Source: an uncultured virus (IMG/VR IMGVR_UViG_3300035126_001036)
Lineage: Duplodnaviria; Heunggongvirae; Uroviricota; Caudoviricetes
IMG/VR virus record: IMGVR_UViG_3300035126_001036
Span: 118,810-138,809 of that record
Strand: one strand, 5' to 3'
Length of the DNA stretch: 20,000 nucleotides
Made by a program: the position numbers and the translations under genes. Under the pieces are notes generated by a model, which saw only the letters and a program-made list of their open reading frames with translations, had not been told where the DNA came from and did no database searches. Shown piece after piece: positions 2,467 through 17,385 of this stretch (position 1 is its first letter; every line of letters begins with the position of its first letter).

Positions 2467-3087
2467 ATGTCTACTTTACGCACAATCAACGGTTTTAAAT
2501 CAGCCCTAAAAGGTGGTGGTGCTCGCCCTAATCTGTTTGAGGTTGAAATTCCAAGTTTTCCAAATTCCCTTAGTGGTATTTGGGGAACAGAGGAAAAAAC
2601 ATCCTTCAAATTTCTTTGTGATGCAACCTCCATGCCAGCATCAAATATTGATCCAATCAATATTCCTTTCAGGGGTCGTATTATGAAAGTGGCCGGAGAC
2701 CGTACTATTGATATCTGGTCAGTAACCGTAATCAACGATGAGGACTTCAGGCTCCGTTCTGCATTTGAACTCTGGGCTAATCTAATCAACAAACTTGAAA
2801 ATGCAACTGGCGCTACTTCACCAAATGCTTATATGGTTGATGCCTTGGTCCATCAACTTGGTCGGGGTTCTACTAGTTTTTCTGATACTGCTAGTACTGC
2901 CCAAAATAATAGTTCTCTTACTCCACTAAGAACCTATAAAATGTATGATATTTGGCCTTCCAATGTATCAGCAATTGATCTATCTTATGGAACCAACAAT
3001 GAAATCGAGCGGTTTACTGTCGATTTCCAAGTAAACTGGTGGGAAGCCGGTAGTCCAGCAGATCAGGCAAACAGGCCAATTAAGTAA
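2467..3087 (+). CDS. gp19: Tail tube protein
   Basis: 206 aa; GGGARPNLFEV, IPFRGRIMKVAGDRT, WSVTVINDEDF, IERFTVDFQV motifs; AGGAGG SD at 2451-2456; follows gp18. Confidence 0.96.
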   Translation: MSTLRTINGFKSALKGGGARPNLFEVEIPSFPNSLSGIWGTEEKTSFKFLCDATSMPASNIDPINIPFRGRIMKVAGDRTIDIWSVTVINDEDFRLRSAFELWANLINKLENATGATSPNAYMVDALVHQLGRGSTSFSDTASTAQNNSSLTPLRTYKMYDIWPSNVSAIDLSYGTNNEIERFTVDFQVNWWEAGSPADQANRPIK

Positions 3088-3088
3088 C

Positions 3089-3095
3089 CTAAATA
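3089..3095 (+). promoter_or_regulatory. T4-type late promoter (CTAAATA)
   Basis: In the gp19-gp20 intergenic gap. Confidence 0.7.
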
Positions 3096-3117
3096 GGGTG
3101 ATCTTAAAATTTAAATT

Positions 3118-4797
3118 ATGGCAAAGTTATTTGGTTTCTCAATTAATGATCGCACCGAATTAACCCCAAGTACAATCTCCCCCGTTCCTCAAAATGCCGA
3201 GGACGGGGCAGATTATTATCTAACGTCTGGGTTTTTTGGCTCTTATGTTGATATTGAGGGTGTTTATAGAAACGAATTTGAATTAATCAAACGTTATCGA
3301 GAAATGGCACTTCACCCAGAGGTGGACGAGGCCATTGAAGATATTGTAAATGAGGCAATTGTTTCTGATACTTATGACAGTCCGGTTCAGATTGAATTGT
3401 CTAATCTAAATGCTAGTGATGGTATTAAGACAAAAATCAGAGAGGAATTTAAACACGTTCTAAAACTTCTTGATTTTGATAAAAAATGTCACGAGATTTA
3501 TAGAAATTGGTATGTTGATGGTAGACTTTATTACCATAAGGTTATTGATCTTAAAAAACCAGAACTAGGAATTCAAGAACTTCGGTATATTGACAGCCTG
3601 AAGATGAGGTATATCCGAAAGGCCAAGCAAGATAAGAGTAATAATAGAATTCTTCAACACGATCCTAGAAATAGTGATCCAATGACTTATAAGTTCCCCG
3701 AAATGGAGGAATATTTTCTTTATAGTCCAAGACCATCTTATCCAAATTCTGGAACCAATATTTCTTCAGCAAGAAATGATAATGATGGTGAAATTAAACT
3801 AGCCAAAGATAGTGTAACTTTTTGTACTTCTGGTCTGATTGATCGCAATAAAAATATTACTCTTTCTTATCTCAATAAGGCAATTAAATCTCTTAATCAA
3901 CTTAGAATGATTGAGGATAGTATTGTAATTTATCGAATGGTTAGAGGGACCGAGAGAAGAATTTTCTATATTGATGTGGGTAATATGCCCAAAGTCAAGG
4001 CCGAGCAGTATCTCAGAGAAACAATGATGAGATACCGAAATAAGATGAATTATAATATTGAAACCGGAGAAGTTTCAAACGACAGAAGATTCCAGAGTCT
4101 TATGGATGATTATTGGCTTCCAAGACGAGAAGGTGGAAGAGGAACTGAGGTAACTACTCTCCCTGGATCACAGAATCTTGGAGAACTAACTGACCTTAAT
4201 TATTTCCAGAGAAAACTTTATAAGTCATTGAATGTTCCGTCCTCAAGAATTGATGGTGAAAGTGGTTTTAACCTAGGTAGGTCTTCAGAAATTCTCAGAG
4301 ACGAAGTTAAGTTTTCAAAGTTTGTGGGGAGACTTAGAAAACGATTCTCTAGGTTGTTTGTGGACCTTCTAAGAACTCAATTGATTCTTAAGAATATTAT
4401 TACTCCAGAAGATTGGGCCGAGATGAGTGAGCATATTCAATTTGATTTCCTTTATGATAATCATTTTGCAGAACTCAAAGAATCTGAGCTTCTCACCGAA
4501 AGACTGAATATGGTCTCAATGGCCGAGCCTTATATTGGAAGATTTTATTCCCAGGATTATGTTAGAAGGAAAGTTCTTAGACAGACTGATGAAGAAATTG
4601 TTGAACAAGATGCTCTGATTCAAAAGGAAATTGAGACCGGAGTTATCCCAGATCCTTCTATTCCTATTGATCCAGAAACCGGGCAGCCTCTCGCAGAACC
4701 ACCACCAGAGGAAATTGAAGGTGATATGGGTAAGGTTCCAACAGAACCAGAAGTCAAAACAAAGGCAGTAGAAATGCCAAAAGGTGGCGACATCTAA
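3118..4797 (+). CDS. gp20: Portal vertex protein
   Basis: 559 aa; MAKLFGFSI, YREMALHPEVD, RNWYVDGR, ERRIFYIDVGN, DYWLPRREGGRGTE, SEILRDEVKFSKFV motifs. Confidence 0.98.
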   Translation: MAKLFGFSINDRTELTPSTISPVPQNAEDGADYYLTSGFFGSYVDIEGVYRNEFELIKRYREMALHPEVDEAIEDIVNEAIVSDTYDSPVQIELSNLNASDGIKTKIREEFKHVLKLLDFDKKCHEIYRNWYVDGRLYYHKVIDLKKPELGIQELRYIDSLKMRYIRKAKQDKSNNRILQHDPRNSDPMTYKFPEMEEYFLYSPRPSYPNSGTNISSARNDNDGEIKLAKDSVTFCTSGLIDRNKNITLSYLNKAIKSLNQLRMIEDSIVIYRMVRGTERRIFYIDVGNMPKVKAEQYLRETMMRYRNKMNYNIETGEVSNDRRFQSLMDDYWLPRREGGRGTEVTTLPGSQNLGELTDLNYFQRKLYKSLNVPSSRIDGESGFNLGRSSEILRDEVKFSKFVGRLRKRFSRLFVDLLRTQLILKNIITPEDWAEMSEHIQFDFLYDNHFAELKESELLTERLNMVSMAEPYIGRFYSQDYVRRKVLRQTDEEIVEQDALIQKEIETGVIPDPSIPIDPETGQPLAEPPPEEIEGDMGKVPTEPEVKTKAVEMPKGGDI

Positions 4798-4800
4798 ATA
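4794..4800 (+). promoter_or_regulatory. T4-type late promoter (CTAAATA) overlapping the gp20 stop codon
   Basis: CTAAATA contains the gp20 TAA (4795-4797); 23 nt upstream of the next ATG. Confidence 0.7.
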
Positions 4801-4823
4801 GTAGCAGTTCATTATAAACAACC

Positions 4824-4973
4824 ATGGAAGAACTAATTAATGCCATTATTGAGGATGAATCTCCTTCTGCTATCAGCGATGCAATCAAAAATATTCTTTC
4901 TGTCAAGGCAGTAGAAAAAATTGATGAATACCGGCCAGAAGTTGCTGCTAGTATGTTTAACGTAAATGAGTGA
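4824..4973 (+). CDS. Small conserved protein downstream of the portal (gp67-like prohead core position); not in the ORF track
   Basis: Hand translation, 49 aa: MEELINAIIEDESPSAISDAIKNILSVKAVEKIDEYRPEVAASMFNVNE*. Resembles the small acidic cyanophage protein that follows g20; has its own late promoter. Confidence 0.8.
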   Translation: MEELINAIIEDESPSAISDAIKNILSVKAVEKIDEYRPEVAASMFNVNE

Positions 4974-5625
4974 TCTTTCAGATTTCTTTAAACTAGTATC
5001 TGAAGAAAAAAGAAAGGCCAAGGAGGAATTGGATGAATTAATATCCAATTCCTTTGAAGAATCTTTTGTTAAACCCCTAATCGAACAGAAATCTAGACCA
5101 AAAAAGAAGAAAAAAGAAGAGACATCTTTTGGTCAACCAACTCTCATTCAAAAATCCCTGGGGCTTCTTGCGGAACCAATTAAAACAAATAATTCTGATC
5201 CGTTAACTCCTCTTAATCAAAACTTTCTTACTCTAGAAGAATTCCAAAAGCACTATAAGATCTTTATTGATCGGGTTCAACAACAGCTCTCTACCCTAGG
5301 TGGAGGTGGTGAAACTAATCTGACTTTTATGGATGTTCCAATGACATCCGTAACTTCTTCTTTTTATCAAATAGTTCCACAAGACTATTATATTGGAGTA
5401 AATTTCTCAGGTGCAGTAACAATTGTACTTCCTAAAGCCGAAAGAGAGGGGAAGATTTTTGTTGTAAAGGACGAGTTAGGAGAAGCATCCAAAGGAACCA
5501 ATCGATACATCACTATTTTACCATCAAGTTCAGATTTAATTGATGGAAGAGATCGGGCAATTCTTGCTTATAATTTTGGATCTCTTACCTTCATTTGGAG
5601 AAATAATTCTTGGAGAGTCATCTAA
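4966..5625 (+). CDS. Putative virion structural protein with a fibre/decoration-like C-terminal module
   Basis: 219 aa; DPLTPLNQNF...QQLSTLGGGGE segment resembling cyanophage virion proteins, then a beta-rich DYYIGVN...TIVLP...GKIFVVKDE...IDG module ending in WRVI. Confidence 0.55.
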   Translation: MSDLSDFFKLVSEEKRKAKEELDELISNSFEESFVKPLIEQKSRPKKKKKEETSFGQPTLIQKSLGLLAEPIKTNNSDPLTPLNQNFLTLEEFQKHYKIFIDRVQQQLSTLGGGGETNLTFMDVPMTSVTSSFYQIVPQDYYIGVNFSGAVTIVLPKAEREGKIFVVKDELGEASKGTNRYITILPSSSDLIDGRDRAILAYNFGSLTFIWRNNSWRVI

Positions 5626-6882
5626 ATGTCACACCTTTATGAACCATATAAACCTCAAGATGATGCTTTTGGTAGGGCAAGAGTTTCTGAGCCATTTACC
5701 CTAGGTGATTATAAACATCTTTATTCAATTGATCCAGATTTTATTGATGTTTATTCTGGAATCGGCGCCACATTGACTTTTAACGTCAACCAGGCAGCCG
5801 CGAATCTTCAATCTGGTATTTCTACTAATGGTTATACAATTCATCAGACAAAAAGATATCATCATTATATGCCAGGTAAATCTCAATTGATTTACTCCTC
5901 TTTTAACTTTGGACAACCTCAACAAAATGTAATCAAGAGGACCGGTTATTTTGATGATAGGGACGGAATTTATTTTGAACAGGATCAAAATGGAAATCTT
6001 AATTTTGTAATTCGTTCTTTTGTTAATGCCGGTATTGGTAATTCGGAAAGAAGAATTCCACAATCTCAATGGAACAAAGATCAACTTGATGGAAGTGGCG
6101 TCTCTGGATTTGATTTAGACATTACAAAAACTCAACTTTTCTTTACCGATTTTGAATGGCTTGGTGTTGGTAGAGTTCGTTGTGGATTTAGTCTTGATGG
6201 TAAGAATATTGTTGCACATGAATTTTATAATTCTAATAATGTTGATACCGTTTACATGTCAAATCCCAATCTCCCAGTAAGATGTGAAATTAGAAACACT
6301 GGAACTCAAGTTGGTGCTGGGGGGTCTTTTATCCAAATTTGCTCTACTGTGATGAGTGAGGGTGGTTATACAGAGGCTGGAAGAGAATTTTCTCATGCAA
6401 CTTCTTTAAGATCTGTTGGTGTTGGATCAACAGTTCCTGTTCTGGCAATTAAACTTAAAAATTCTTTTAAAGGTTATCCAAATAGAGCTACGGTAAAATT
6501 AGAGGATATTTCAGTTTTTAGTGTTGGATCAAATATAAAGTATGAGGTAGTAAAAATTAATAGTGCCGTGGGTTTGAGTACAACCGGGACCTGGATTTCT
6601 GAACACCCCGAATCTGTTGTTGAATACAACCAAACTGCAACCGGAGTTGGAACAACTCTATTTGAGGATTTTATGAGTGGATATGCTTCTGGTGACAGTC
6701 AAAATGTAAATAAACCAGCCGCAACTTTTTCTAACATTCAATCTGGCCCCACATCAAAGAAAAATTTCTTGTCTCAGAATTATAATTCAACCAATTCTGA
6801 GATTTTTTCTGTAATAGTTACCAATATTGGTTCTAATTCAACAAATGTTGGTGTTTCTTTGAGGTGGAAAGAGATTTATTGA
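5626..6882 (+). CDS. Putative virion structural protein (DAFGR-x-RVS family)
   Basis: 418 aa; DAFGRARVSEPFTL, QTKRYHHYMPGKSQL, DFEWLGVGRVRCGF, YMSNPNLPVRCEI motifs recalled from a widespread phage hypothetical family; coupled to the previous gene by TAAATG. Confidence 0.6.
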   Translation: MSHLYEPYKPQDDAFGRARVSEPFTLGDYKHLYSIDPDFIDVYSGIGATLTFNVNQAAANLQSGISTNGYTIHQTKRYHHYMPGKSQLIYSSFNFGQPQQNVIKRTGYFDDRDGIYFEQDQNGNLNFVIRSFVNAGIGNSERRIPQSQWNKDQLDGSGVSGFDLDITKTQLFFTDFEWLGVGRVRCGFSLDGKNIVAHEFYNSNNVDTVYMSNPNLPVRCEIRNTGTQVGAGGSFIQICSTVMSEGGYTEAGREFSHATSLRSVGVGSTVPVLAIKLKNSFKGYPNRATVKLEDISVFSVGSNIKYEVVKINSAVGLSTTGTWISEHPESVVEYNQTATGVGTTLFEDFMSGYASGDSQNVNKPAATFSNIQSGPTSKKNFLSQNYNSTNSEIFSVIVTNIGSNSTNVGVSLRWKEIY

Positions 6883-6902
6883 CTAAATAGTTTTAATAAA
6901 TA
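6883..6902 (+). promoter_or_regulatory. Tandem late promoter boxes (CTAAATA 6883-6889; ATAAATA 6896-6902)
   Basis: Intergenic, upstream of ORF 6924 and the GC-rich island. Confidence 0.7.
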
Positions 6903-6923
6903 ACTAAAGAAACCCCGTTAAAA

Positions 6924-7259
6924 ATGTCGCTTCTTGATAAAAAATCCTCAGTAAAATTAAATTCTGGACAACTTGTTCAGGGAGTTGCTGTAGTTGATAG
7001 TGACGGAAATCAAGTTACTTCATTTGGGGGTAGTGGAGGTGGTTCTACAACTGTCGGGGTAGTAACAGTTTCTAATACCGTTTCTAATCCAGTTCCGGTT
7101 ATTTCTGGACTAAATATTCCAAACCACAATAGAGTATCCCTTGCATATTCGGGATCTAATTTAGTTGGTGTTGCATACAGTTTTAATAATGTCGGTGTTG
7201 CTACTTTAACTCTTTCTTATGATGGGAGTAATAACCTTATTTCGGTCGTTAGGAGTTGA
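6924..7259 (+). CDS. Small beta-rich putative virion/fibre-associated protein
   Basis: 111 aa; C-terminal IPNHNRVSLAYSGSNL...VATLTLSYDGSNNLISVVRS resembles small proteins found next to phage fibre genes; backbone-like AT-rich DNA. Confidence 0.6.
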   Translation: MSLLDKKSSVKLNSGQLVQGVAVVDSDGNQVTSFGGSGGGSTTVGVVTVSNTVSNPVPVISGLNIPNHNRVSLAYSGSNLVGVAYSFNNVGVATLTLSYDGSNNLISVVRS

Positions 7260-7264
7260 TTTTT

Positions 7265-8323
7265 ATGCAATATAAGTTCAACCCATTTACTGGAACCCTG
7301 GATGCGGCTGGCGGCGGCAACCCTGCTGGAAACAGTGGCGACATTCAGCTAAACCTGGATGGCGCCTTCGGTGCTGTTTCCGGTTTTCGCTGGATCACTG
7401 GTGAATTGCAGGTTCCGGGTGACATCAAACTTGATGACGGCGGCGGCTTCACTACAACAATTCAGTGTGTAACGCCGACCAGGAACAACACCATCTCATT
7501 CCCTGATCAGACGGGGACTGTGGCCTTGGTGGGCGGCTCTACTGGGCAGCTTGTCTACAACCTGAATGGTTCGTATCAAGGCGTCAGCACGATGACGTTT
7601 GATGGCACGTCAGTTACTCTGGCTGGCCGTTTGATCAACAGCTATACAAGTCTGGCTAGTGCTCCAGCCAAACATTTCACCGGCTCGTGGTTCACGGGCG
7701 GCACCAGCACAACCACCAAGCCGCACTTCCTGATCGAGCCTGCGGGCACTACGTCTACCGCCTGGAGCGCGTCTGGCACAGGCCTGGGGGTGAATGCGCC
7801 GAGCGGGTTTGCGGGGAACCTGCTGGACCTGCAGATGAATGGAGTAACTACTGTCTATGCCACCGCCGCTGGTTTGCTGGGCGCTACTACTGCAAACATT
7901 GGATCTACTATTATAAGCAGTACTGGCGTTACGCTAGTAAATACCAGAAACATAACCTTTACAGGAAGTCTTGTCGGCACAGTCAACTGGGGCGATCTTT
8001 TTATTGCTCGTGACGCCGCTAACACCCTCGCCCAACGCAACGACGCCAACGCCCAGACCAGCCGCATCTACAACACCTTCACCAGCGCCACAAACTTCGA
8101 GCGGGCAAAAATCGAATGGGCCAGCAACATCCTGCGCATCGGCACCGAGAAAGGCTCCGCAGGCGGCACAGCCCGCGACATGGAGCTACAGACCGATGGC
8201 ACAACACGAATCACGGTGAAGGCTAACGGGGCCATCCTGTTCTCAGGTATTCCCACCTCTAACCCGAACGTCGCGGGCCAGTTGTGGAACGACGGCGGAA
8301 CCCTGAAAATCTCCGCCGGTTAA
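7265..8323 (+). CDS. Fibre-like protein, chimeric (AT-rich start fused to a GC-rich body)
   Basis: Likely start ATG 7265 (352 aa). N-terminal YKFNPFTGTLD motif; G/T/S/A-rich; ISFPDQTGTVAL shaft-like motif; C-terminal IPTSNPNVAGQLWNDGGTLKIS motif typical of phage fibre proteins. Confidence 0.65.
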   Translation: MQYKFNPFTGTLDAAGGGNPAGNSGDIQLNLDGAFGAVSGFRWITGELQVPGDIKLDDGGGFTTTIQCVTPTRNNTISFPDQTGTVALVGGSTGQLVYNLNGSYQGVSTMTFDGTSVTLAGRLINSYTSLASAPAKHFTGSWFTGGTSTTTKPHFLIEPAGTTSTAWSASGTGLGVNAPSGFAGNLLDLQMNGVTTVYATAAGLLGATTANIGSTIISSTGVTLVNTRNITFTGSLVGTVNWGDLFIARDAANTLAQRNDANAQTSRIYNTFTSATNFERAKIEWASNILRIGTEKGSAGGTARDMELQTDGTTRITVKANGAILFSGIPTSNPNVAGQLWNDGGTLKISAG

Positions 8324-8328
8324 TCACC

Positions 8329-8913
8329 ATGCCCCTTTCCTCTCTCACGATCACCCTCACCGACACCCGCCTAATTGATGGCTGGGTAGAGGCCGCCAAT
8401 CGTAACGGCACCACGCCTGAGCAGCTTGCGCTGGAGTTTCTACAGCATCAAGGCCGAGTCTATGCCGACCTGAATCGCATCGGGTTGATCACCAGCTCTG
8501 GATTCATTCGCCGGTTCTCAGCCGCTGAGTACGGAGCGATTCTTGCCGCTGCCGAGCAGTCCCCGCATGTGGCCGCCCTGGTAGATGAGCTGACCAACTC
8601 TCCCACAGTGGCGCTTGACGACCCCCGCCTTGAGCCTGGCCTGCAGGCATTGGCAGCCGCTGGCCTGATCGCTGCCGAACGCATCCCGGTGATTTTGGCG
8701 TATGCGCGTCCTGAGCCCGGAGGCCAGCGCCCTACCAATCCGCAGCGGTTTGACGTGTTCACAGCCCCAGACGGTAGCCAGTGGATGTGGGATCAGCCCC
8801 GCGCCGCTGACGGCGCCTACGCCCAGGACGACCCTGCCACCGAGGCCGTGGAATCGGCTATGCGCTGGGTGCGCGTCACAGAGGACGACGAAGATGGAGG
8901 TGGCGACGGATGA
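8329..8913 (+). CDS. Putative fibre assembly chaperone-like protein with an extra C-terminal module
   Basis: Likely start ATG 8329, 5 nt after the fibre stop (194 aa). Helical FIRRFSAAEYGAI...VALDDPRLEPGLQALAAAGLIAAERIPVIL resembles small proteins encoded downstream of fibres; acidic tail QPRAADGAYAQDDPATEAVE. Confidence 0.45.
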   Translation: MPLSSLTITLTDTRLIDGWVEAANRNGTTPEQLALEFLQHQGRVYADLNRIGLITSSGFIRRFSAAEYGAILAAAEQSPHVAALVDELTNSPTVALDDPRLEPGLQALAAAGLIAAERIPVILAYARPEPGGQRPTNPQRFDVFTAPDGSQWMWDQPRAADGAYAQDDPATEAVESAMRWVRVTEDDEDGGGDG

Positions 8914-9680
8914 CGTTGATATGGCGCCCAGGCTACATAACAACATTTGCCGATCCTGATGTTCAGTCGTATTTGACAAGGGTAGAGGAGGCCGATAATC
9001 AGAGATTGGAATACCCCGTAGCGGTGGCGATTGATGAGTTTATTAGGGGCTGCAAGGCTGATGGGATCTGGAACGCGATCAAAGCCTCCTGCATCATGGC
9101 CGGCGCCCGCACACTGGCCGGTGCGTTGGTGCCGCTGGTGGGTACTGCGCCGACGAACTTTAACTTTGTGGCGGGGGATTACAACCGGAAGACGGGGCTG
9201 GTGGGGAATGGGAGCAATAAGTATTTGGATAGCAATAGGAATAATAATGCGGATCCGCAGGATAGTAAACATGTTGCTGCCTATGTCGTTTCAATTGGCA
9301 GCGGTGGTGGGCGACCGTTTGTTGCGACATCAGCCGGAACAGGTCGGACATTTATCAATGATCTCGTTCAAGTTACGGTAAACAGATCGGCATTCAACGT
9401 TGCTACTGCCGTTGTTGCCCCGTGCCTTGCCGGGGCGTCTCGCAATTCATCTGCAACATTTGACCTTCGGAGAAACAACCAAACTGTTTCTTTTACAGGG
9501 GTAACTTCGGAAACCCCATTGAACCAAAATCTTTTCGTATACAGGCGCCAAGGAGCAACTATCACTGAATACTCGGACGCCCGCATCTCATTCTACAGCA
9601 TAGGCGAATCCCTGGACCTCGCCCTGCTCGACGCCCGCATCACCACCCTAATCAACAGATTCGCAGTCGTAATACCATGA
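8910..9680 (+). CDS. Cassette paralog 1, putative receptor-binding/lectin-like virion protein
   Basis: 256 aa; GGAGG SD at 8896-8900, ATGA overlap; conserved GCKADGIWxAIKASCI..GARTL.GALVPLV and YSIGESLDL.LLDAR blocks shared with the next two genes. Function inferred. Confidence 0.7.
   Translation: MTLIWRPGYITTFADPDVQSYLTRVEEADNQRLEYPVAVAIDEFIRGCKADGIWNAIKASCIMAGARTLAGALVPLVGTAPTNFNFVAGDYNRKTGLVGNGSNKYLDSNRNNNADPQDSKHVAAYVVSIGSGGGRPFVATSAGTGRTFINDLVQVTVNRSAFNVATAVVAPCLAGASRNSSATFDLRRNNQTVSFTGVTSETPLNQNLFVYRRQGATITEYSDARISFYSIGESLDLALLDARITTLINRFAVVIP
9075..9172 (+). repeat. Upstream conserved arm, copy 1 (direct repeat of 9860-9957)
   Basis: 98-nt alignment to 9860-9957 with only two mismatches (C/T at 9104 and 9158), both synonymous. 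Confidence 0.95.
9576..9680 (+). repeat. Downstream conserved arm, copy 1 (homologous to 10367-10471 and 11217-11321)
   Basis: Shared GGCGAATCCCTRGACCTCG...CTCGACGCCCGC...CCATGA core in all three paralogs. Confidence 0.9.
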
Positions 9681-10471
9681 GCCCAATTTACACTCCAGGA
9701 AAGTTAATACTTCGCCGGACGTATATTGGCCTGGACGACCCTGACGCTGCGGCATACATCACAGCGGTCGAGATTGCAGATGGCCAGCCCTTGGAGATTG
9801 GGGTTCAGGTGGCAATTCATTCGTTTGTAAAAGGCTGCAAGGCGGATGGCATCTGGCCAGCGATCAAAGCCTCCTGCATCATGGCCGGTGCCCGCACACT
9901 GGCCGGTGCGTTGGTGCCGCTGGTGGGTACTGCGCCGACGAATTTTAACTTTGTGGCTGGTGATTACAACAGAAAGACGGGGCTTGTGGGGAATGGGACG
10001 ACGAAGTATCTGGACAGCGGCAGGAATAACAACGCTGATCCGCAAGATAGCAAGCATCTGGCAGTATTCAAATCAAGCAACGCAGGCAAGCTGGGGGGCC
10101 TCTTAGGCACTGCGTTGAACGCAAATGGTACATCATGGATTTTTGAAGGTTTTAGTGGAGGCAACGATACCTATCGAGTCAATACAAACCCTTCAATCAT
10201 ACTCTCCCTAGGATCTTATCCTGACACGGGATTTATAGGCATTAACCGTTCGTCGTCGAGTAACTCAACGCGAAGGTATTCAGGGGCAACAATCTCTGAT
10301 GCCAGCACCTCTCAAGCGCCATTAGCCGCAAATGCTCTGGTGTTTAGTGCCGCAGGCCAGCCAACCGACGCCCGCCTCGCCTACTACTCCATCGGCGAAT
10401 CCCTAGACCTCGCCCTCCTCGACGCCCGCGTGACCGCCCTGATCAACACGTTCGGAGCTGTTATCCCATGA
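9677..10471 (+). CDS. Cassette paralog 2, putative receptor-binding/lectin-like virion protein
   Basis: 264 aa; ATGA overlap with paralog 1; same conserved blocks, divergent central region. Confidence 0.7.
   Translation: MSPIYTPGKLILRRTYIGLDDPDAAAYITAVEIADGQPLEIGVQVAIHSFVKGCKADGIWPAIKASCIMAGARTLAGALVPLVGTAPTNFNFVAGDYNRKTGLVGNGTTKYLDSGRNNNADPQDSKHLAVFKSSNAGKLGGLLGTALNANGTSWIFEGFSGGNDTYRVNTNPSIILSLGSYPDTGFIGINRSSSSNSTRRYSGATISDASTSQAPLAANALVFSAAGQPTDARLAYYSIGESLDLALLDARVTALINTFGAVIP
9860..9957 (+). repeat. Upstream conserved arm, copy 2
   Basis: 96/98 identical to 9075-9172; 9845-9880 is also identical (36 nt) to 10668-10703 in paralog 3. Confidence 0.95.
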
Positions 10472-10521
10472 AACACCCATTTTCCACTGCCACTACGAAG
10501 TGCGCGGAGGTGTTGCTATGA
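10468..10521 (+). CDS. 17-codon mini-ORF linking paralogs 2 and 3
   Basis: MKHPFSTATTKCAEVLL*; starts in the ATGA at the paralog 2 stop and ends in the ATGA at the paralog 3 start. Confidence 0.35.
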   Translation: MKHPFSTATTKCAEVLL

Positions 10522-11321
10522 GCTGGATTATTACGTCGTCGTTCTATGGCTACATCGCGGATGTTGATGCTAGGGACTACTTGGCAAGGGTTCACAACGC
10601 AGAAGGCCAAACACTGGAACCTGCTGTGGCTCTTGCCATCGAGGCGTTTGTGGTGGGCTGTAAGGCTGATGGCATCTGGCCAGCGATCAAAGCCTCCTGC
10701 ATCCTTGCCGGTGCCCGCACGCTGAACGGTGCGCTGGTGCCGCTGGTAAAACAGGCGGCAGACGGTACTCCTCAGAGGCTTGGGACAGAAGGAGGCTGGA
10801 ACTATCTCCGAAAAACTGGCTTAAAGGCAAATGGGACTGACAACAGAATTGACTCTGGTCGAAATAACAGCACCGATCTGCGGAATAATAGTCACAATGC
10901 TGTGTACATAACGGAAGCGCAAACACTAAATGCTTCGATAATGGGAGCCGACTCTACCGGCTTGGGGGCGAACAATCTAGGATGGTTTAACTCTTCTGGA
11001 GTCGCGTTGTTCGCTCGGAATAGATCAACCGCTATTCAAAATCAAATTGCAGGGTCCACAAGCTCAGCGCCGATCAATTTATTCGGTACAAGCCGGAATA
11101 GTGCTACAGGCTATACTGTAAGGGCATCAGGCATTGGTTACCCGCTTACGCATACATCAGCAACCCCTTCACCTGGAAAGGTGTATGTGTTTGCCCGTGA
11201 GAATGCTGGATCCAGCGACCCACGCCTCGCCTTCTACAGCATAGGCGAATCCCTAGACCTCGTCCTACTCGACGCCCGCGTCACCACCCTAGTCAATGCG
11301 TTCGGAGCTGTTATCCCATGA
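10518..11321 (+). CDS. Cassette paralog 3, putative receptor-binding/lectin-like virion protein
   Basis: True start likely ATG 10518 (MSWIIT..., 267 aa), preceded by GGAGGT SD at 10506-10511; same conserved arms. Confidence 0.7.
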   Translation: MSWIITSSFYGYIADVDARDYLARVHNAEGQTLEPAVALAIEAFVVGCKADGIWPAIKASCILAGARTLNGALVPLVKQAADGTPQRLGTEGGWNYLRKTGLKANGTDNRIDSGRNNSTDLRNNSHNAVYITEAQTLNASIMGADSTGLGANNLGWFNSSGVALFARNRSTAIQNQIAGSTSSAPINLFGTSRNSATGYTVRASGIGYPLTHTSATPSPGKVYVFARENAGSSDPRLAFYSIGESLDLVLLDARVTTLVNAFGAVIP

Positions 11322-11398
11322 CCTGGACTGATGTTGCGATGATGGCCGCAATGATGCTCCCGGCCAGCGTTGCCGTCGCAGTGCTACTGGAGCCCTGA
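11318..11398 (+). CDS. Tiny hydrophobic peptide (single TM-like helix)
   Basis: Hand translation, 26 aa: MTWTDVAMMAAMMLPASVAVAVLLEP*; ATGA overlap with paralog 3. Confidence 0.45.
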   Translation: MTWTDVAMMAAMMLPASVAVAVLLEP

Positions 11399-11401
11399 CC
11401 C

Positions 11402-11545
11402 ATGCCCCACTTAATCCGCTTCACCGCCGCCGTTACACTGGTGGCCGGCCTGCTGGGCTGGCTGCTGAGTGCCGTGCCCCTACCGCTGGCGCTGGGCGTC
11501 GCGGTCGTCTGCGCTTGGCTGGTGTTTGACCTGGTGCAGCCGTAG
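11402..11545 (+). CDS. Small two-TM membrane protein
   Basis: Hand translation, 47 aa: MPHLIRFTAAVTLVAGLLGWLLSAVPLPLALGVAVVCAWLVFDLVQP*; two hydrophobic stretches split by PLP; island-like codon usage. Confidence 0.6.
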   Translation: MPHLIRFTAAVTLVAGLLGWLLSAVPLPLALGVAVVCAWLVFDLVQP

Positions 11546-11617
11546 GGGGCTGAGCTACAGCCCTGCGGCCATACTCATGAATATGGCGCTGGTTGAAATG
11601 CCTGAATTATAAACGAC

Positions 11618-11638
11618 AGGACCCTAAGGGGCCTTTTT
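11618..11638 (+). terminator. Possible intrinsic terminator at the end of the island
   Basis: AGGACCC-TAA-GGGGCCT (one mismatch) followed by TTTT; two more short hairpins just upstream (GGGCTG/CAGCCC 11547-11563; GCCATA/TATGGC 11568-11587). Confidence 0.45.
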
Positions 11639-11652
11639 AATGTCTATTTTTT

Positions 11653-11659
11653 CTAAATA
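11653..11659 (+). promoter_or_regulatory. T4-type late promoter (CTAAATA)
   Basis: Directly after the island, upstream of ORF 11682 and gp21. Confidence 0.75.
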
Positions 11660-11681
11660 GGTTTATACCCTAAATGAAATC

Positions 11682-12248
11682 ATGGCTGCATTCAAAATAG
11701 TACAAGAAGTGAATTCACTTATTTTACCCCTGAGCGGTGTACAAACTAGTAATCCCATTTCTCTAAAAAGTGGATATTTAAGAATCAGGGCCGAATCTGA
11801 TTGTTATCTTGAAGTTGGATATACACCAGTCGGTATTAATACAATATCTAGTCTTTGGATTGATAGGGCCGAAACCTTAGTCCTTAAAGAAAACATAGCA
11901 TCACAAAGAGTGGTAGGTGTTATTACTGGAACTAATACACTAATCGACTTTCCACAAGGAACTGGTTCTCCAGTAGAGGTCAATGATTATGTGAGCCTTT
12001 CTGGGATTCAACCAGTTGGAATTAATACTAATTATGCAAGAGTATCAAATATTTATACATCATCCGGTGTTGGTGGTTATTATTCTACTCGTATTGCATT
12101 GGACTGGAATACATCTTCTGTCACTGGAGTCATAACGGCTACTGATTCTGCAGAAATTAGGAAAGCCGTTAAGGTATCGGCTCTTGATGGTGGTTTTGGC
12201 CCCAACAAAGTTCATATTACAGAAATTCAAATCGCATCAGAGGCATAA
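11682..12248 (+). CDS. Conserved cyanophage protein upstream of gp21 (putative virion structural protein)
   Basis: 188 aa; SNPISLKSGYLRI, TLIDFPQGTGSP, VHITEIQI resemble the cyanomyophage gene normally found between g20 and g21; AT-rich backbone codon usage. Confidence 0.65.
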   Translation: MAAFKIVQEVNSLILPLSGVQTSNPISLKSGYLRIRAESDCYLEVGYTPVGINTISSLWIDRAETLVLKENIASQRVVGVITGTNTLIDFPQGTGSPVEVNDYVSLSGIQPVGINTNYARVSNIYTSSGVGGYYSTRIALDWNTSSVTGVITATDSAEIRKAVKVSALDGGFGPNKVHITEIQIASEA

Positions 12249-12250
12249 AA

Positions 12251-12901
12251 ATGAAACTAATCATCGAAGAAGCAGAATCAGTAAAATACATTACCGAAGA
12301 AATTAACGGTAAAAAGGCTCTTTGTATTGAAGGAAATTTTCTTATGGCCAATGAGCCAAATAGAAATAATCGAGTATATCCAATGAAAATTCTTAGAGAT
12401 GCAGTGAATACCTATACTAAGAATTTTATTGAATCAAAAAGATCTCTAGGTGAACTTAATCATAATTCCATTCCAGGAGTAGATCTAACAAAAGTATCTC
12501 ATATGATTACCTCTCTTAAAGAGAATGGTAATTATTTTTATGGTAAGGCCCGAATTCTAAACACCCCAATGGGTAAAATTGCCCAGGGTCTGATTGATGA
12601 GGGGGTAGTTCTTGGAGTCAGTTCACGGGCTCTGGGTAGTGTTAAACAAACTAACGAAGGATATTCCGTAGTTGGTCCGGATCTTGTTATTAATTGTGTG
12701 GACATTGTTCATGATCCTTCTGTTGGTGCTGCCGCATTTGTCAATGGCATTTATGAAGGAAAAGAATGGATTTATGACTCCGCAAAGCAAGAATATGTCG
12801 CAATGAATATTAAAAACAAGATTGAACGTGACGTAGTAAGCAAAAGATTGAGTGAAGAGCGTATGATTATGCATTTTGAGAACTACTTGAACATGCTCTG
12901 A
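12251..12901 (+). CDS. gp21: Prohead core protease
   Basis: 216 aa; MKLIIEE, NRNNRVYP, LGELNH, TPMGKIA, LGVSSRALGS, DIVHDPS, FVNGIYEGKEW. Confidence 0.95.
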   Translation: MKLIIEEAESVKYITEEINGKKALCIEGNFLMANEPNRNNRVYPMKILRDAVNTYTKNFIESKRSLGELNHNSIPGVDLTKVSHMITSLKENGNYFYGKARILNTPMGKIAQGLIDEGVVLGVSSRALGSVKQTNEGYSVVGPDLVINCVDIVHDPSVGAAAFVNGIYEGKEWIYDSAKQEYVAMNIKNKIERDVVSKRLSEERMIMHFENYLNML

Positions 12902-14199: not shown

Positions 14200-15609
14200 A
14201 TGCTTCAACTTAACGAAAGCCAATTGCAGGAAAAGTGGGCTCCGCTTCTGAACTTTGACGGCCTTGATCCCATCAAGGATGCTCATCGCAGAAAGATCAC
14301 CGCTATCCTGCTAGAAAACGCCGAACATGATCTTCGGGAAACCAATTCTTTCAACAATGGACTTCTTCTAGAAAGTCCTACTATTGCTAATGCCCCTGGT
14401 GCATCTGGTGGTTTTAGCGGCTCAGCCGATGCTGCTGGTCCAGTAGCCGGTTTTGACCCAATTCTAATCAGCATGATTCGTCGTGCTATGCCTAATCTTG
14501 TGGCCTATGATCTGGCTGGTGTACAGCCCATGACTGGTCCTACTGGTCTAATCTTCGCCATGCGCTCTCGCTATGAAGGCCAAAGTGGTGATGAGACCTT
14601 CTTCGATGAAGTAGACACCTCATTCTCTGCTCAAAACAGTGGTCGTAGCCTGACTGCCGGTATCACCTCTGCCATCTCTGGTATGGGTACTACTGCTGGT
14701 CAACTTGGCACCAATCCTGGTCTACTTAACCCAACCGGTTCAGCCAATCAGGCTGCATATAACCTAGGTCAGGGTATGGTAACCGGTGATGCTGAGAATC
14801 TTGGCAATGGTGATAATAATCAGTTCAACGAAATGAGCTTCTCGATTGAGAAAGTTCTTGTTGAGGCTAAGAGCCGCGCTCTCCGGGCTCAGTACACTCT
14901 AGAAATGGCCCAGGATCTCAAGGCGATTCATGGTCTTTCTGCCGAAGCCGAGCTGGCTAACATTCTGTCTACCGAAATTCTTGCCGAAATTAACCGCGAG
15001 GTTATTCGTACCATTTATAAGGTAGCCGAACAAGGTGCAGCCGTAAACACTTCTACTCCTGGTATTTTTGACCTTGATATTGACTCCAACGGTCGTTGGT
15101 CAGTTGAGAAGTTTAAGGGTCTAATCTTCCAGATTGAGCGTGATGCAAACGCTATCGCCCAGCGTACTCGTAGAGGGAAGGGTAACGTAATCATGTGCTC
15201 TGCTGACGTAGCCTCCGCGCTAACCATGGCTGGTGTACTTGATTATACTCCTGCTCTAAATGCTAACCTAAACGTAGACGATACTGGCAATACTTTTGCT
15301 GGCGTTCTTATGGGTAAGTACCGTGTATACATTGATCCTTATTCTGCCAACGTAAGTGCTAATCAGTATTATGTTGTTGGTTACAAGGGTTCTTCACCTT
15401 ATGATGCGGGGATTTTCTATGCTCCATATTTGCCATTGCAAATGGTTCGTGCTGTAGATCCTAAGACTTTCCAGCCTGCTATCGGATTTAAGACTCGTTA
15501 TGGCATGGTCGCAAACCCCTTCGCTGAGGGCTTGGATCAAGGCCTGGGCCGTCTGAAAATCAATAGCAACCGCTATTATCGTAGAGTTTCCATCCGAAAC
15601 TTATCTTAA
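14200..15609 (+). CDS. gp23: Major capsid protein
   Basis: 469 aa; EKWAPLL, AGVQPMTGPTGLIFAMRSRY, AQDLKAIHGL, GRWSVEKFKGL, GFKTRYG. Probable gp21 cleavage after LLE58 (inferred from the T4 L/I-x-E rule). Confidence 0.99.
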   Translation: MLQLNESQLQEKWAPLLNFDGLDPIKDAHRRKITAILLENAEHDLRETNSFNNGLLLESPTIANAPGASGGFSGSADAAGPVAGFDPILISMIRRAMPNLVAYDLAGVQPMTGPTGLIFAMRSRYEGQSGDETFFDEVDTSFSAQNSGRSLTAGITSAISGMGTTAGQLGTNPGLLNPTGSANQAAYNLGQGMVTGDAENLGNGDNNQFNEMSFSIEKVLVEAKSRALRAQYTLEMAQDLKAIHGLSAEAELANILSTEILAEINREVIRTIYKVAEQGAAVNTSTPGIFDLDIDSNGRWSVEKFKGLIFQIERDANAIAQRTRRGKGNVIMCSADVASALTMAGVLDYTPALNANLNVDDTGNTFAGVLMGKYRVYIDPYSANVSANQYYVVGYKGSSPYDAGIFYAPYLPLQMVRAVDPKTFQPAIGFKTRYGMVANPFAEGLDQGLGRLKINSNRYYRRVSIRNLS

Positions 15610-15683: not shown

Positions 15684-15889
15684 ATGACTAAAGTTTTTAC
15701 AAAAGAAACGAGCAGAAGAAGCAAGCAGTAAATGTTGGCTTATTATTGCTCCAGATGGAACTGAAGAAATTATTGTAAATCTTTCAAAGTATTGTAGAGA
15801 ACGAGAATTAAATAATAGTTCTATGAGATTAGTTGCTTATGGTAAACAGGACGATTATAAAGGCTATAGAGTAAAAAAAACTAGACTAA
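15684..15889 (+). pseudogene. Frameshifted remnant of a homing-endonuclease-type DNA-binding domain (NUMOD/IENR-like)
   Basis: Frame from 15688 reads QKKRAEEASSKCWLIIAPDGTEEIIVNLSKYCRERELNNSSMRLVAYGKQDDYKGYRVKK, like the C-terminal modules of phage HNH/GIY-YIG endonucleases. ATG 15684 and the natural-looking stop (KKLD-TAA 15887-15889) are each out of frame by one base. Confidence 0.6.
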
Positions 15890-17385
15890 TTTATAGGGCC
15901 GAAAGGTCCCAACCCATAAGTAAGACTCCCACAGTCCCAAATTTTCTCAAATCCCATTTCTCTGGCCTTCTCATACTCTGAACAATCATACGCCCCTATC
16001 AATTTCTTTTGAAACTTCATTCGATTGTGCCGCTCTAAACAATTCTTATCGACATAAAAATAAGAAGGCCCATTAACATGAATTAAATTGAAACCGTTTT
16101 TCTTATAAACATCACCATTAGAAATTCTTCGATCAGCATAACTTACAATAGAACCACCATAAGAATCAATAAAATTCTTCAACATCTTAGAAAATCCACC
16201 AACAACAGTAATTCCACCGAGACAGGCAAACCTAGAAAGTTCCCACTGATAATTTCGATTAAATCTAGAATTACAAAAAGTCATTACACAAACTAGTTTA
16301 TTCTCATAAAAAAGACCCAGTTTAATTTTACTTTTGTCTTCTCTTTGAATATGATTTTGGTTTAAAAAAGAATTCTTTAATGAAACGTCGATTTCGTTAA
16401 CAATACATTTTCGTGCATAAAGTCTCTTATTTAGACCCAATTTACTTTTGATAATATTTTGAACGATTTCTTTTTTAAATTTCCACTCATCACTATAAAA
16501 CTGTAATAGTTGTATTCCATTTTTACTACACTCTATTGTTTTCTGTAAATGATAAGAAGGACCTTTAATTAAACATTCTTTTTCTTCCCAAGGACGATAA
16601 AGATGAGAGTATAACCCATTATACTCAATTGCCAGATTATCTTCAGGTAAATAAAGATCTAATTCTTTCCCATTAAGAACAGAACGATTAGATTGTTGAA
16701 TTTCTTTATTGTAGATTGTTTTCAACCAATTATAAATCTCATTTTCTTCTTTACTAATCTTTTTGATTTTTCTTTCATAAGAATTTGAACTTCTGGTTTC
16801 AATTCCATGAACCTGCATCCATCTAGAAACGGTTCCTTTTGTGGTATTTAATTGTTCGGCAACTTCTTCTACTTTAAGACCCGAACTATAAAGAGCAGAT
16901 AGTTCTTCCTTGGACTGAAGAATTCGATTGGCATTTAGATTTCTTTGTCTTGCGTCAAAAAGATTATCTAGGCCATATTCTTTAAGTTTGTTTCGGATCG
17001 TGACCGGACTTGTTTTTAGATCACTTGCAATCTGGTCTACTGATTTTTGAGCAACAATTCTTTCATTATATAGAGTCTCTTTTGTAATGATTGGAGATTT
17101 TACTTTTAAAGAGTGGTCATTATTATAAAATCTTCTAAATCCTTGTTCTGGATAGGTATAGTTAAGGTTGGCTGCTAGGCCACAACCACATTCACATAAA
17201 GGAACTTTTTTGATGTCATTCAGAACAACATAGGCTCGGTGCTTGTTTTGAATCTTTTCATAATGTTTATCCATAAAGAAAGTTTGATTTCTTAATTCAG
17301 AAACAAATTCTTTGTTCTTTACAAGCGACGCAAAGAGACTTTTATCACTCCATGAGGCTTTAACCAATTCTTTGAAATTGTCCAT
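15886..17385 (-). CDS. Hef-like putative homing endonuclease: Cys cluster, HTH repeats, Vsr/DUF559-like nuclease and Mom-like GNAT domain
   Basis: 499 aa; CECGCG; two HTH-like segments (SVDQIASDLKTSPVTIRNKL; KVEEVAEQLNTTKGTVSRWM); ELDLYLPEDNLAIEYNGLYSH nuclease motif; C-terminal YARKC...FLNQNHIQ...WELSRFA...VVGGFSKM...IVSYADRR...GDVYKKNGF...KIWDCG. Confidence 0.75.
   Translation of the reverse strand: MDNFKELVKASWSDKSLFASLVKNKEFVSELRNQTFFMDKHYEKIQNKHRAYVVLNDIKKVPLCECGCGLAANLNYTYPEQGFRRFYNNDHSLKVKSPIITKETLYNERIVAQKSVDQIASDLKTSPVTIRNKLKEYGLDNLFDARQRNLNANRILQSKEELSALYSSGLKVEEVAEQLNTTKGTVSRWMQVHGIETRSSNSYERKIKKISKEENEIYNWLKTIYNKEIQQSNRSVLNGKELDLYLPEDNLAIEYNGLYSHLYRPWEEKECLIKGPSYHLQKTIECSKNGIQLLQFYSDEWKFKKEIVQNIIKSKLGLNKRLYARKCIVNEIDVSLKNSFLNQNHIQREDKSKIKLGLFYENKLVCVMTFCNSRFNRNYQWELSRFACLGGITVVGGFSKMLKNFIDSYGGSIVSYADRRISNGDVYKKNGFNLIHVNGPSYFYVDKNCLERHNRMKFQKKLIGAYDCSEYEKAREMGFEKIWDCGSLTYGLGPFGPIN

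Follow-up and report, generated by a model that had tools for sequence, protein, structure and literature searches.

The last 20 kb of IMG/VR record IMGVR_UViG_3300035126_001036, an uncultured virus of the Caudoviricetes, carry three adjacent paralogous genes, named here g1, g2 and g3 (8910..11321, plus strand), in which conserved outer parts enclose centres that are unrelated to each other. All positions refer to this stretch of 20,000 nucleotides (nt), the window, which forms the end of a 138.8-kb record that is 56% complete. By comparing the window with related loci from metagenomes and isolates, we have shown that the conserved parts serve as homology arms for core replacement, and a recombinational mechanism is well supported. 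Regarding their role, we consider it rather probable that g1 to g3 encode ConA/LamG-type modules with swappable cores, which are exchanged via these arms and act as host-surface recognition units. A first-pass annotation of the window had already proposed that cores are exchanged between such arms by homologous recombination, either with co-infecting phages or among the three genes themselves.

Three Paralogues With Conserved Arms and Unrelated Cores

The array comprises g1 (256 amino acids (aa), position 1, 8910..9680), g2 (264 aa, position 2, 9677..10471) and g3 (267 aa, position 3, 10518..11321, with ATG 10518 as the most likely start). All three products are full-length members of PHROG 17104, a family of unknown function, with matches that each span profile positions 1-264 of 264 (E = 1.6e-84 for g1, residues 1-255; 6.9e-85 for g2, residues 1-264; 1.8e-72 for g3, residues 1-267). 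The protein identities to g1 are 57% for g2 and 45% for g3, and the genes are true paralogues. Each gene has been divided into a leader, an N-terminal arm (N-arm), a core and a C-terminal arm (C-arm). In g1 these parts occupy 8910-9041, 9042-9275, about 9276-9566 and 9567-9680, and in g2 9677-9826, 9827-10060, 10061-10357 and 10358-10471; in g3 a segment of the N-arm (N-arm core) lies at 10650-10757, the core at about 10899-11207 and the C-arm at 11208-11321. A repeat search has recovered the same arrangement as direct repeats, namely a 191-nt family in three copies (8949, 9734 and 10557), a pair at 9023-9277 and 9808-10062 with 85% identity, and a 116-nt 3' arm at 9565-9680, 10356-10471 and 11206-11321 with 75-79% identity.

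The arm identities and base counts given in the first-pass annotation have been reproduced exactly, with 96/98 identical nt between 9075-9172 and 9860-9957, 36/36 between 9845-9880 and 10668-10703, and G+C counts of 22/60 (9481-9540), 23/60 (10141-10200) and 44/60 (9091-9150). In codon-aligned comparisons of the paralogues, the N-arm core (9042-9149 in g1) is 79-91% identical in DNA at a synonymous divergence (dS) of 0.22-0.36, and the C-arm 76-82% identical at a dS of 0.32-0.60. The centres reach 33-41% in DNA and 22-26% in protein, the leaders (first ~45 codons) ~52% in DNA, and dS is saturated in both. The arm identity had been said to extend to synonymous sites beyond what protein-level selection explains, and this effect is real and confined to the arms. 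Among 400 random family pairs, the 5th percentile of the proportion of synonymous differences is 0.39, and the paralogues' N-arm cores (0.19-0.29) fall below it. Furthermore, the arm segment that follows the N-arm core is 90% identical in protein between g1 and g2, yet its dS is 1.48, and therefore the synonymous identity of the N-arm core is not a by-product of protein conservation. The description of the centres as much more AT-rich holds at third codon positions, where their G+C (GC3) is 0.39-0.43 vs 0.68-0.81 in the N-arm cores and C-arms; for overall G+C it has been overstated, as that gap is smaller (0.49 vs 0.56-0.65).

Core Replacement in Sister Contigs and Across the Family

Family members have been collected by hmmsearch from 82 sources, namely the window, 77 loci of IMG/VR and 4 of isolates. 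Two arm peptide patterns served to find the loci, which were then ordered by their similarity to g2. This set holds 145 members, with one copy in 35 sources, two in 31 and three in 16; these copy numbers are lower bounds because many contigs are short. After dropping copies at least 98.5% identical, 109 members were kept.

The clearest cases are two sister contigs whose left flanks are nearly identical to the window (L009, 99.5% over 3164-7570; L012, 99.7% over 2955-7849) and which are nevertheless mosaic inside the GC-rich island that holds the array. Relative to L009, the window is unrelated at 7550-8850, 89-99% identical at 8896-9150 (g1 leader and N-arm), unrelated again at 9196-9522 (g1 core), and 90-100% identical at 9572-10419 (g1 C-arm and all of g2). 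A third contig, L010, belongs to another myovirus backbone, with a different sheath family and no similarity to the T4-like genes, and it has kept all four junctions of the array at 83-100%, whereas all three cores are unrelated. In sliding windows, the g1 core is unrelated (30-50%) to the first-position cores of L009, L012 and L010. The g2 core is 99-100% identical in L009 and unrelated in L010, and the g3 leader is identical to that of L010 (93/93) next to an unrelated core. Exchange of cores between conserved arms, as proposed at first, is thus borne out by these loci.

In the place of g3, L009 carries a 218-aa gene of Lcl_C type; the Pfam call (E 5e-5) lies below the gathering score, and PF07603 is carried by 116 of the 120 listed relatives. 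When window 10469-11345 is aligned with L009:6795-7588, the Lcl_C-type protein has been seen to retain the first six residues, MSW[IL]IT, alone. The third slot of the array is thus shared by two unrelated domain types, Lcl_C (PF07603) and LamG.

The same pattern extends across the family. Any two members share ~70% DNA identity in the arms and are at chance level in the centres (median 0.37), whether they come from the same genome or not. Among 121 pairs from different sources that share a leader (at least 90% identity), 115 have unrelated cores; similarity is lost at positions 110-129 of the family's hidden Markov model (HMM) in 103 of these 115 and regained at HMM 230-239 in 101. The limits of similarity are therefore located at fixed places. 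Conversely, where cores are shared, core dS is lower than N-arm dS in 11 of 13 pairs (e.g., 0.19 vs 1.17 and 0.29 vs 1.83), and leaders or arms are unrelated in 4 of the 13. Contigs of four further lake runs, matched at 90% identity or more, also depart from the window at arm borders (behind 9161, 9998, 10057 and 10746; before 10384, 10713 and 11223).

The exchanged cores are highly diverse, forming 91 clusters (at least 50% aa identity) among 106 members, with lengths of 86-111 aa. No array with two similar cores has been found among 53 non-redundant within-source pairs (maximum 46% in DNA). The ratio of nonsynonymous to synonymous divergence (dN/dS) is 0.35-1.87 in cores, the counts being small where it exceeds 1, vs 0.04-0.27 in N-arms, and it is higher in the core in 10 of the 11 pairs with both values defined. 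In 105/105 members, the arms exceed the core in GC3 (medians 0.56-0.66 vs 0.38, median difference 0.24), and this contrast holds across contig G+C from 0.46 to 0.64. Biased gene conversion in the arms and drift of weakly constrained cores are candidate explanations.

g1 as a Recombinant

The history of exchange is most legible in g1, which is a recombinant: its first 50 codons follow the positional orthologues, and donor-like sequences are present in the data set. Over HMM 9-52, g1 is 96-100% identical to the first genes of L009 and L012 (L009_1, L012_1). From HMM 53 to 228 it is 88-100% identical to L047_1 and L073_1, with core identities of 96-100% in DNA at a dS of 0.014-0.021, and at HMM 229-264 it is again like L009_1 and L012_1. 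The donor-like L047 and L073 are contigs of 64% G+C with a single family gene, whose leaders are unrelated to that of g1. The approximately unbiased (AU) tests, made on trees of 26 hand-chosen rows with groups named after the identities had been seen, have given conflicting topologies for the two parts. The leader tree joins g1 with its positional orthologues (support 93.8) and rejects g1+L047_1+L073_1 (p-AU 7e-9), and the tree of HMM 60-228 has the reverse grouping (support 100, p-AU 6e-6). Congruence of arm and core phylogenies, which would have spoken against exchange, is rejected accordingly.

Array Architecture and Exchange Between Paralogues

Exchange of the three genes with each other has left one direct trace. 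At HMM 62-94, g1 matches g2 in 96/99 positions and other position-2 genes in 91-94/99, compared with 83-88/99 for position-1 orthologues, and its leader and HMM 51-61 group with position 1. This indicates a short putative conversion tract derived from a position-2-type arm. In two further arrays (L038, L039), the paralogues agree with one another to 97-100% in their N-arm cores and have unrelated cores; this would reflect either recent arm homogenisation or duplication followed by core replacement, and it makes a stronger case than the array of the window. Three contig joints (9787->10634 with 23 other letters and a short side of 27, 9787->9047, and 10057->9577 backwards) have not been counted as products of unequal crossover, as they are equally explained as related genes of other phages.

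The leaders are specific for the position in the array. Leaders of orthologous positions share 90-100% identity and those of different positions ~55%, so that the unit conserved between genomes is the C-arm of one gene together with the leader of the next. Across arrays, position-2 genes start at HMM 1-3 and position-1 and position-3 genes at HMM 9-20; g2 bears the longer N-terminal peptide typical of position 2.

Absence of Dedicated Diversification Machinery

The first-pass annotation had attributed the variation to homologous recombination and not to a diversity-generating retroelement (DGR) or an invertase, and this attribution is borne out by unalignable cores of unequal length and by the following searches. 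RVT_1 has given no match in the record (56% complete). No meaningful inverted repeats of invertase or shufflon type were found in 8000-12500, where three pairs were weak (71-88%) or irrelevant and the array arms, as direct repeats, are the sole repeats. The sole open reading frame (ORF) of the record with a resolvase domain lies ~96 kb from the array, as part of an IS607-like TnpA/TnpB pair. In this pair (G000 C1 about 22061-23735; locus L085 1336-3010), a 197-aa serine-recombinase TnpA (Resolvase, E 2.8e-19) overlaps a 495-aa TnpB-like ORF. As no dedicated enzyme is involved, the process appears to be a population-level exchange of cassettes, not a programmed switch within one phage.

Protein Family and Predicted Fold

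By sequence, the family is large and poorly described. For g1-g3, Pfam has returned no families at E<=0.01, and among 47 members no Pfam family is shared even at E<=1. The Pfam LamG family PF13385 has been seen on some longer relatives, and g1-g3 have no match to it. A profile search of PDB sequences (E<=10) has given no matches. At the same time, 6785 of 8000 scored candidates (90% clustering) match the family at E<=0.001, and the 50%-identity clusters matching the profile number 4481 at E<=1e-3, 2417 at E<=1e-10 and 1448 at E<=1e-30. No description of PHROG 17104, of such a tandem array or of its core exchange has been found in literature listings and abstracts, with subscription journals mostly outside reach.

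The alignment-based AlphaFold2 model of g2 has reached a predicted local distance difference test (pLDDT) of 92.5 and a predicted template modelling score (pTM) of 0.89, and consists of two N-terminal helices, a fourteen-strand sandwich of ConA/LamG type and a C-terminal helix. The lectin- or LamG-like structure that the first-pass annotation had considered is thereby recovered, as the model superposes on solved ConA/LamG-like domains. These look-alikes comprise sugar-binding domains and some enzymes of the same fold, and the top matches are non-catalytic sugar-binding proteins (AbnA domain 4, CBM40, PilC lectin, toxin HcN). The model is also matched nearly end to end by gp15 of phage Pan3 (PDB 9vyh, 270-aa chains), deposited as 'tailspike gp15'. 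The structure of the Pan3 tailspike has reportedly been described by Hou et al. in Structure in 2026. In BFVD, the fold of g2 is found at whole length either alone or C-terminally in long proteins named collagen-repeat, Ig-like or YapH. Mapped on the model, the N-arm would represent the family-wide conserved N-terminal half of the sandwich, the sharply bounded core (86-111 aa) about seven strands out of fourteen, the C-arm the last strand and helix, and the leader the position-specific first ~50 codons. Across the family the arms are 70-77% identical in protein (N-arm 77%) and carry invariant Tyr, Arg, His, Glu and Asp. Such polar residues leave room for a conserved partner site or catalysis in the N-arm, as opposed to a purely passive scaffold.

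The module also occurs in the form of in-frame fusions. Among 121 longer relatives, 85 have two modules, 4 three and 32 one, nearly always at the C-terminus, and the internal modules do not have the N-terminal peptide of 8-17 residues that is present in the split genes. In the model of a two-module protein (pLDDT 91.8, pTM 0.75), module 2 begins with a helix that almost directly continues the C-terminal helix of module 1; such a junction would agree with a defined arrangement between modules and supports nothing firm. Modules have likewise been seen C-terminally in proteins of 1000-1290 aa, and the name of one NCBI record points to a Nanopelagicaceae metagenome bin.

The GC-Rich Island and the Phage Backbone

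The array forms the major part of a GC-rich island (7265..11545, plus strand) between the portal-side structural genes and the protease, which we propose to be a host-recognition module. Its G+C is 0.53-0.63 per 500 nt vs 0.33-0.44 in the flanks, and lake-metagenome contigs diverge from the window before 7265 and behind 11541. The first gene of the island (7265..8323, plus strand) matches phrog_18251, of unknown function. The ORF list gives its start as TTG 7256; ATG 7265 agrees with the start of the L009 orthologue. Its N-terminal ~100 aa are conserved and its C-terminal part is swapped among relatives: the first ~100 codons are 92-100% identical in L009, L010 and L012, and relative to L009 an identity of 92-100% extends to ~7500, from ~7550 onwards being replaced by unrelated sequence. 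The second gene (phrog_25252; 8284..8913, plus strand, likely start ATG 8329) is a divergent member of a family of small ORFs with an acidic Gly-rich tail, which precede arrays in other phages. Its 134-aa counterpart in L009 and L010 is 74% identical to S-CBS4 gp055 and 70% to S-SRP02 p005, and the version of the window is weakly related to that family (E 4e-5 to KBS-S-2A 00049). The C-terminal part of the phrog_18251 gene and the next ORF have been seen as a shorter, unrelated pair in L009 (232 + 134 aa) and L010 (224 + 134 aa), where an acidic GGGDG tail beside the g1 start is the sole retained part of the replaced phrog_25252 ORF. The island is closed by two small hydrophobic ORFs on the plus strand (26 aa, 11318-11398; 47 aa, 11402-11545), which also follow the final family gene of L009, L010, L019, L047 and L073, with 81-90% nt identity. 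Start and stop codons overlap as ATGA at 8910 (8910-8913), 9677 and 11318. A scan for promoters and terminators has given sites no more frequent than in shuffled sequence.

The surrounding backbone is AT-rich and that of a T4-like, Synechococcus-type myovirus. By Pfam and PHROGs, it includes a T4-type sheath (251-2431), T4-type tube and portal (3118-4797), prohead protease (12251-12901), scaffold and major capsid protein (14200-15609), as well as UvsY and UvsW. Synechococcus phages B3 and B23 (Kyanoviridae) have a capsid protein 88% identical to that of the window, and the DNA of the window recurs in 24 coded metagenome runs from lakes or fresh water. A gene for a 499-aa homing-endonuclease-like protein (15886-17385; phrog_3339, E 3e-95; 29-33% G+C) separates the capsid gene from a second tube-like gene and lies on the minus strand, opposite to its neighbours; at the same place and on the same strand, phage B3 carries a similarly sized ORF (493 aa).

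Proposed Function and Alternative Explanations

Several lines of evidence make recognition of the host surface by g1-g3 plausible, i.e., the fold, the gene context, the fused fibre and pilin forms, and the likeness to the Pan3 tailspike gp15. The order of a phrog_18251 gene, a small ORF with acidic Gly-rich tail and one to three family genes recurs in KBS-S-2A, S-CBS4 and S-SRP02 (Autographiviridae by its record), with the phrog_18251 homologues in the same place ahead of the family genes. Annotated tail-fibre genes lie near family genes in S-CBS4, S-SRP02 and S-CBWM1; in S-CBWM1, a family gene is present, no phrog_18251 homologue has been found and gp86 is unrelated to the small ORFs. In phage B3, the nearest isolate backbone, the corresponding slot between portal and protease is taken by a 'tail fiber protein'. 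Moreover, family modules ~50-55% identical to g2 (BLASTP) end three prepilin-type (PF07963) proteins (P0128, P0224, P0238).

On this basis, the following mechanism may be proposed. Three translationally coupled genes would produce stand-alone lectin-fold modules of ~260 aa, which are virion-borne or fibre-associated and recognise a structure of the host surface, probably a glycan. The core would set the specificity, and the helices and the conserved half would attach the module to the particle or to a neighbouring module, so that three different cores may equip one phage with three specificities. Ordinary homologous recombination between co-infecting phages of differing backbone and G+C, and occasionally between the paralogues themselves, replaces whole cores, and the unit formed by the C-arm of one gene and the leader of the next stays in place.

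Several points weigh against this reading or narrow it. Arm identity has been found to be no higher within genomes (median 0.70-0.73) than between them (0.69-0.72), so that conversion within arrays would be an occasional event and no standing process; a general concerted evolution within arrays has been rejected on the same comparison. The g1 leader is 96-100% identical while both upstream genes are replaced, and thus does not co-vary with its obvious candidate partners. In sequence, no relation of Pan3 gp15 to the family could be detected (hhalign probability 0.1%), and as it ranks 10th among many ConA-like folds, the likeness may be one of shared fold only. Since loci were picked by arm patterns and likeness to g2, arm conservation is in part a matter of construction; in addition, the 121 leader-sharing pairs are not independent, and the metagenome evidence consists of contigs, not reads.

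A bolder version of the same idea, which we regard as possible but hold with less than even confidence, sees the arms as a shared 'docking standard' on which thousands of lectin cores circulate without a recombinase, crossovers and biased gene conversion being confined to the arms and the modules being chained head to tail. If true, this standard would be common to phages of picocyanobacteria from fresh and estuarine waters, whether myo-, sipho- or podoviruses, and would extend even to bacterial type IV pilins. The GC3-rich arms beside AT-rich cores would then be the footprint of the core traffic, with cores drifting under weak or positive selection, and each module would contact its successor through its own C-terminal helix and the successor's leader helices, in the manner of the fused proteins, to form a recognition chain of three specificities.

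Alternatively, the modules could be glycan-cleaving enzymes, i.e., ConA-like hydrolases or lyases of depolymerase type with catalytic arms and a core that shapes the substrate groove, the cores still being swapped. This is unlikely in our view. The invariant Tyr, Arg, His, Glu and Asp of the arms and their high protein identity throughout the family would suit an active site, and in a protein atlas, PF09206 is carried by 58% of the members of a nearby cluster (score 0.92). However, the best structural matches are the non-catalytic domains named above, no glycoside hydrolase or lyase of Pfam has matched in 47 members at E<=1, and the identity to enzymes amounts to 7-10% with no catalytic residue alignable. 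The modules furthermore end pilins and fibre-like proteins, the usual site of adhesive domains.

It is also improbable that the proteins are absent from the virion and act in or on the infected cell, for example in lectin-like exclusion, anti-defence or modification of the envelope, and have been diversified by variable molecules of hosts or rival phages. Such a role would agree with the two small hydrophobic ORFs that travel with the array and with an island composition foreign to the backbone, which is common for accessory cargo. Nevertheless, the module is embedded among structural genes, with the portal on one side and the prohead protease on the other, a place that a tail-fibre gene takes in the nearest isolate, and annotated tail-fibre genes adjoin it in isolates of different morphotypes. 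The fold also ends fibre-like and pilin proteins, and the structural analogue Pan3 gp15 belongs to a solved tailspike.

Many tail-fibre chaperones are encoded just downstream of their client. A function of g1-g3 as assembly chaperones that co-vary with the upstream protein would fit their location directly downstream of, and translational coupling to, a gene with variable C-terminus, but is very improbable: L009 and L010 share the upstream genes (134-aa ORF 99% identical), yet their g2-position cores differ, and a single client would not need three different copies. To our knowledge, known fibre chaperones are also unlike a 260-aa lectin sandwich with a core dN/dS of up to 1.9.

Finally, the notion that no cassettes are exchanged, with arms kept alike by purifying selection and codon bias and cores diverged in place, by DGR-like hypermutation or by an invertase or shufflon, can draw on the ~70% DNA identity between the arms of any two members, the high arm GC3 that raises chance codon identity and the resolvase-domain gene in the genome, but is scarcely tenable in view of unalignable cores of unequal length beside 99.5% identical flanks, the same core at 96-100% identity behind unrelated leaders, the rejection of one tree by AU tests, a core dS below arm dS in 11/13 core-sharing pairs, and direct instead of inverted arm repeats, with no RVT_1 and the resolvase in an IS607-like pair ~96 kb away.

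Comparison With Known Systems and Significance

The exchange principle itself is decades old. In the adhesin gp38 and the distal fibre gp37 of T-even phages, hypervariable segments lie between conserved glycine-rich motifs (GRMs), which are the crossover sites in gp38 and give access to a shared library of specificity segments (Trojet et al. 2011, PMC3157838). The array resembles gp38, as presented there, in being formed by small protein genes beside a fibre gene, in the interleaving of conserved motifs with hyperplastic sequence, and in a large shared library of interchangeable segments across related phages (PMC3157838). It differs in its ConA/LamG sandwich, which has no sequence relation to gp38, and in a single core of ~100 aa, about half the domain, compared with four short loops in the gp38 of that account. 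Arrays of one to three genes, or fusions of two to three modules, are a further difference, and exchange crosses backbones of differing morphotype and G+C; receptor binding is here a predicted role. In adhesins of gp38 type, GRMs build the conserved core and an N-terminal domain binds the tip of gp37. As g1-g3 contain no GRM-like repeats and have no gp38 match in Pfam or PHROG, they work like gp38 in recombining between conserved motifs and are not members of it. Novel here are the protein family and its fold, the use of one large cassette, the arrangement in tandem or as fusions, and the wide range of backbones between which cores are exchanged.

Two further lectin-like proteins invite comparison. 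Pan3 gp15 is likewise a protein of ~270 aa, encoded directly after the tailspike gene gp14 of a freshwater cyanopodophage; unlike the array, it is present as a single copy. PilC of Streptococcus sanguinis (PDB 7oa7/7oa8) carries a lectin module on a type IV pilin, just as members of the family end prepilin-type proteins. Those pilin lectins are fused to bacterial surface filaments, whereas g1-g3 are free-standing phage genes.

Programmed diversification is known from DGRs (Mtd of Bordetella phage BPP-1), from the invertible Gin and Cin segments of Mu and P1, and from the Rci shufflon. The aim is likely the same, i.e., an altered distal surface for host recognition on a scaffold that is kept. 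In contrast to those systems, neither a template repeat nor an adenine-specific pattern nor an adjacent recombinase has been found here, whole segments of unequal length are replaced, and the variants are stable alleles common to genomes.

Among the properties of environmental phages, host range is the hardest to predict. In the family described here, the part that would determine specificity has limits that are definable at the level of codons, and metagenomes directly reveal how it is exchanged between phages. The cores may thus serve as a marker with which to follow the turnover of receptors in cyanophage populations of lakes, and the fixed arms offer a natural design for core swaps that would probe the determinants of cyanophage host range. 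Beyond phages, one and the same module family would serve both phage tails and bacterial pili.

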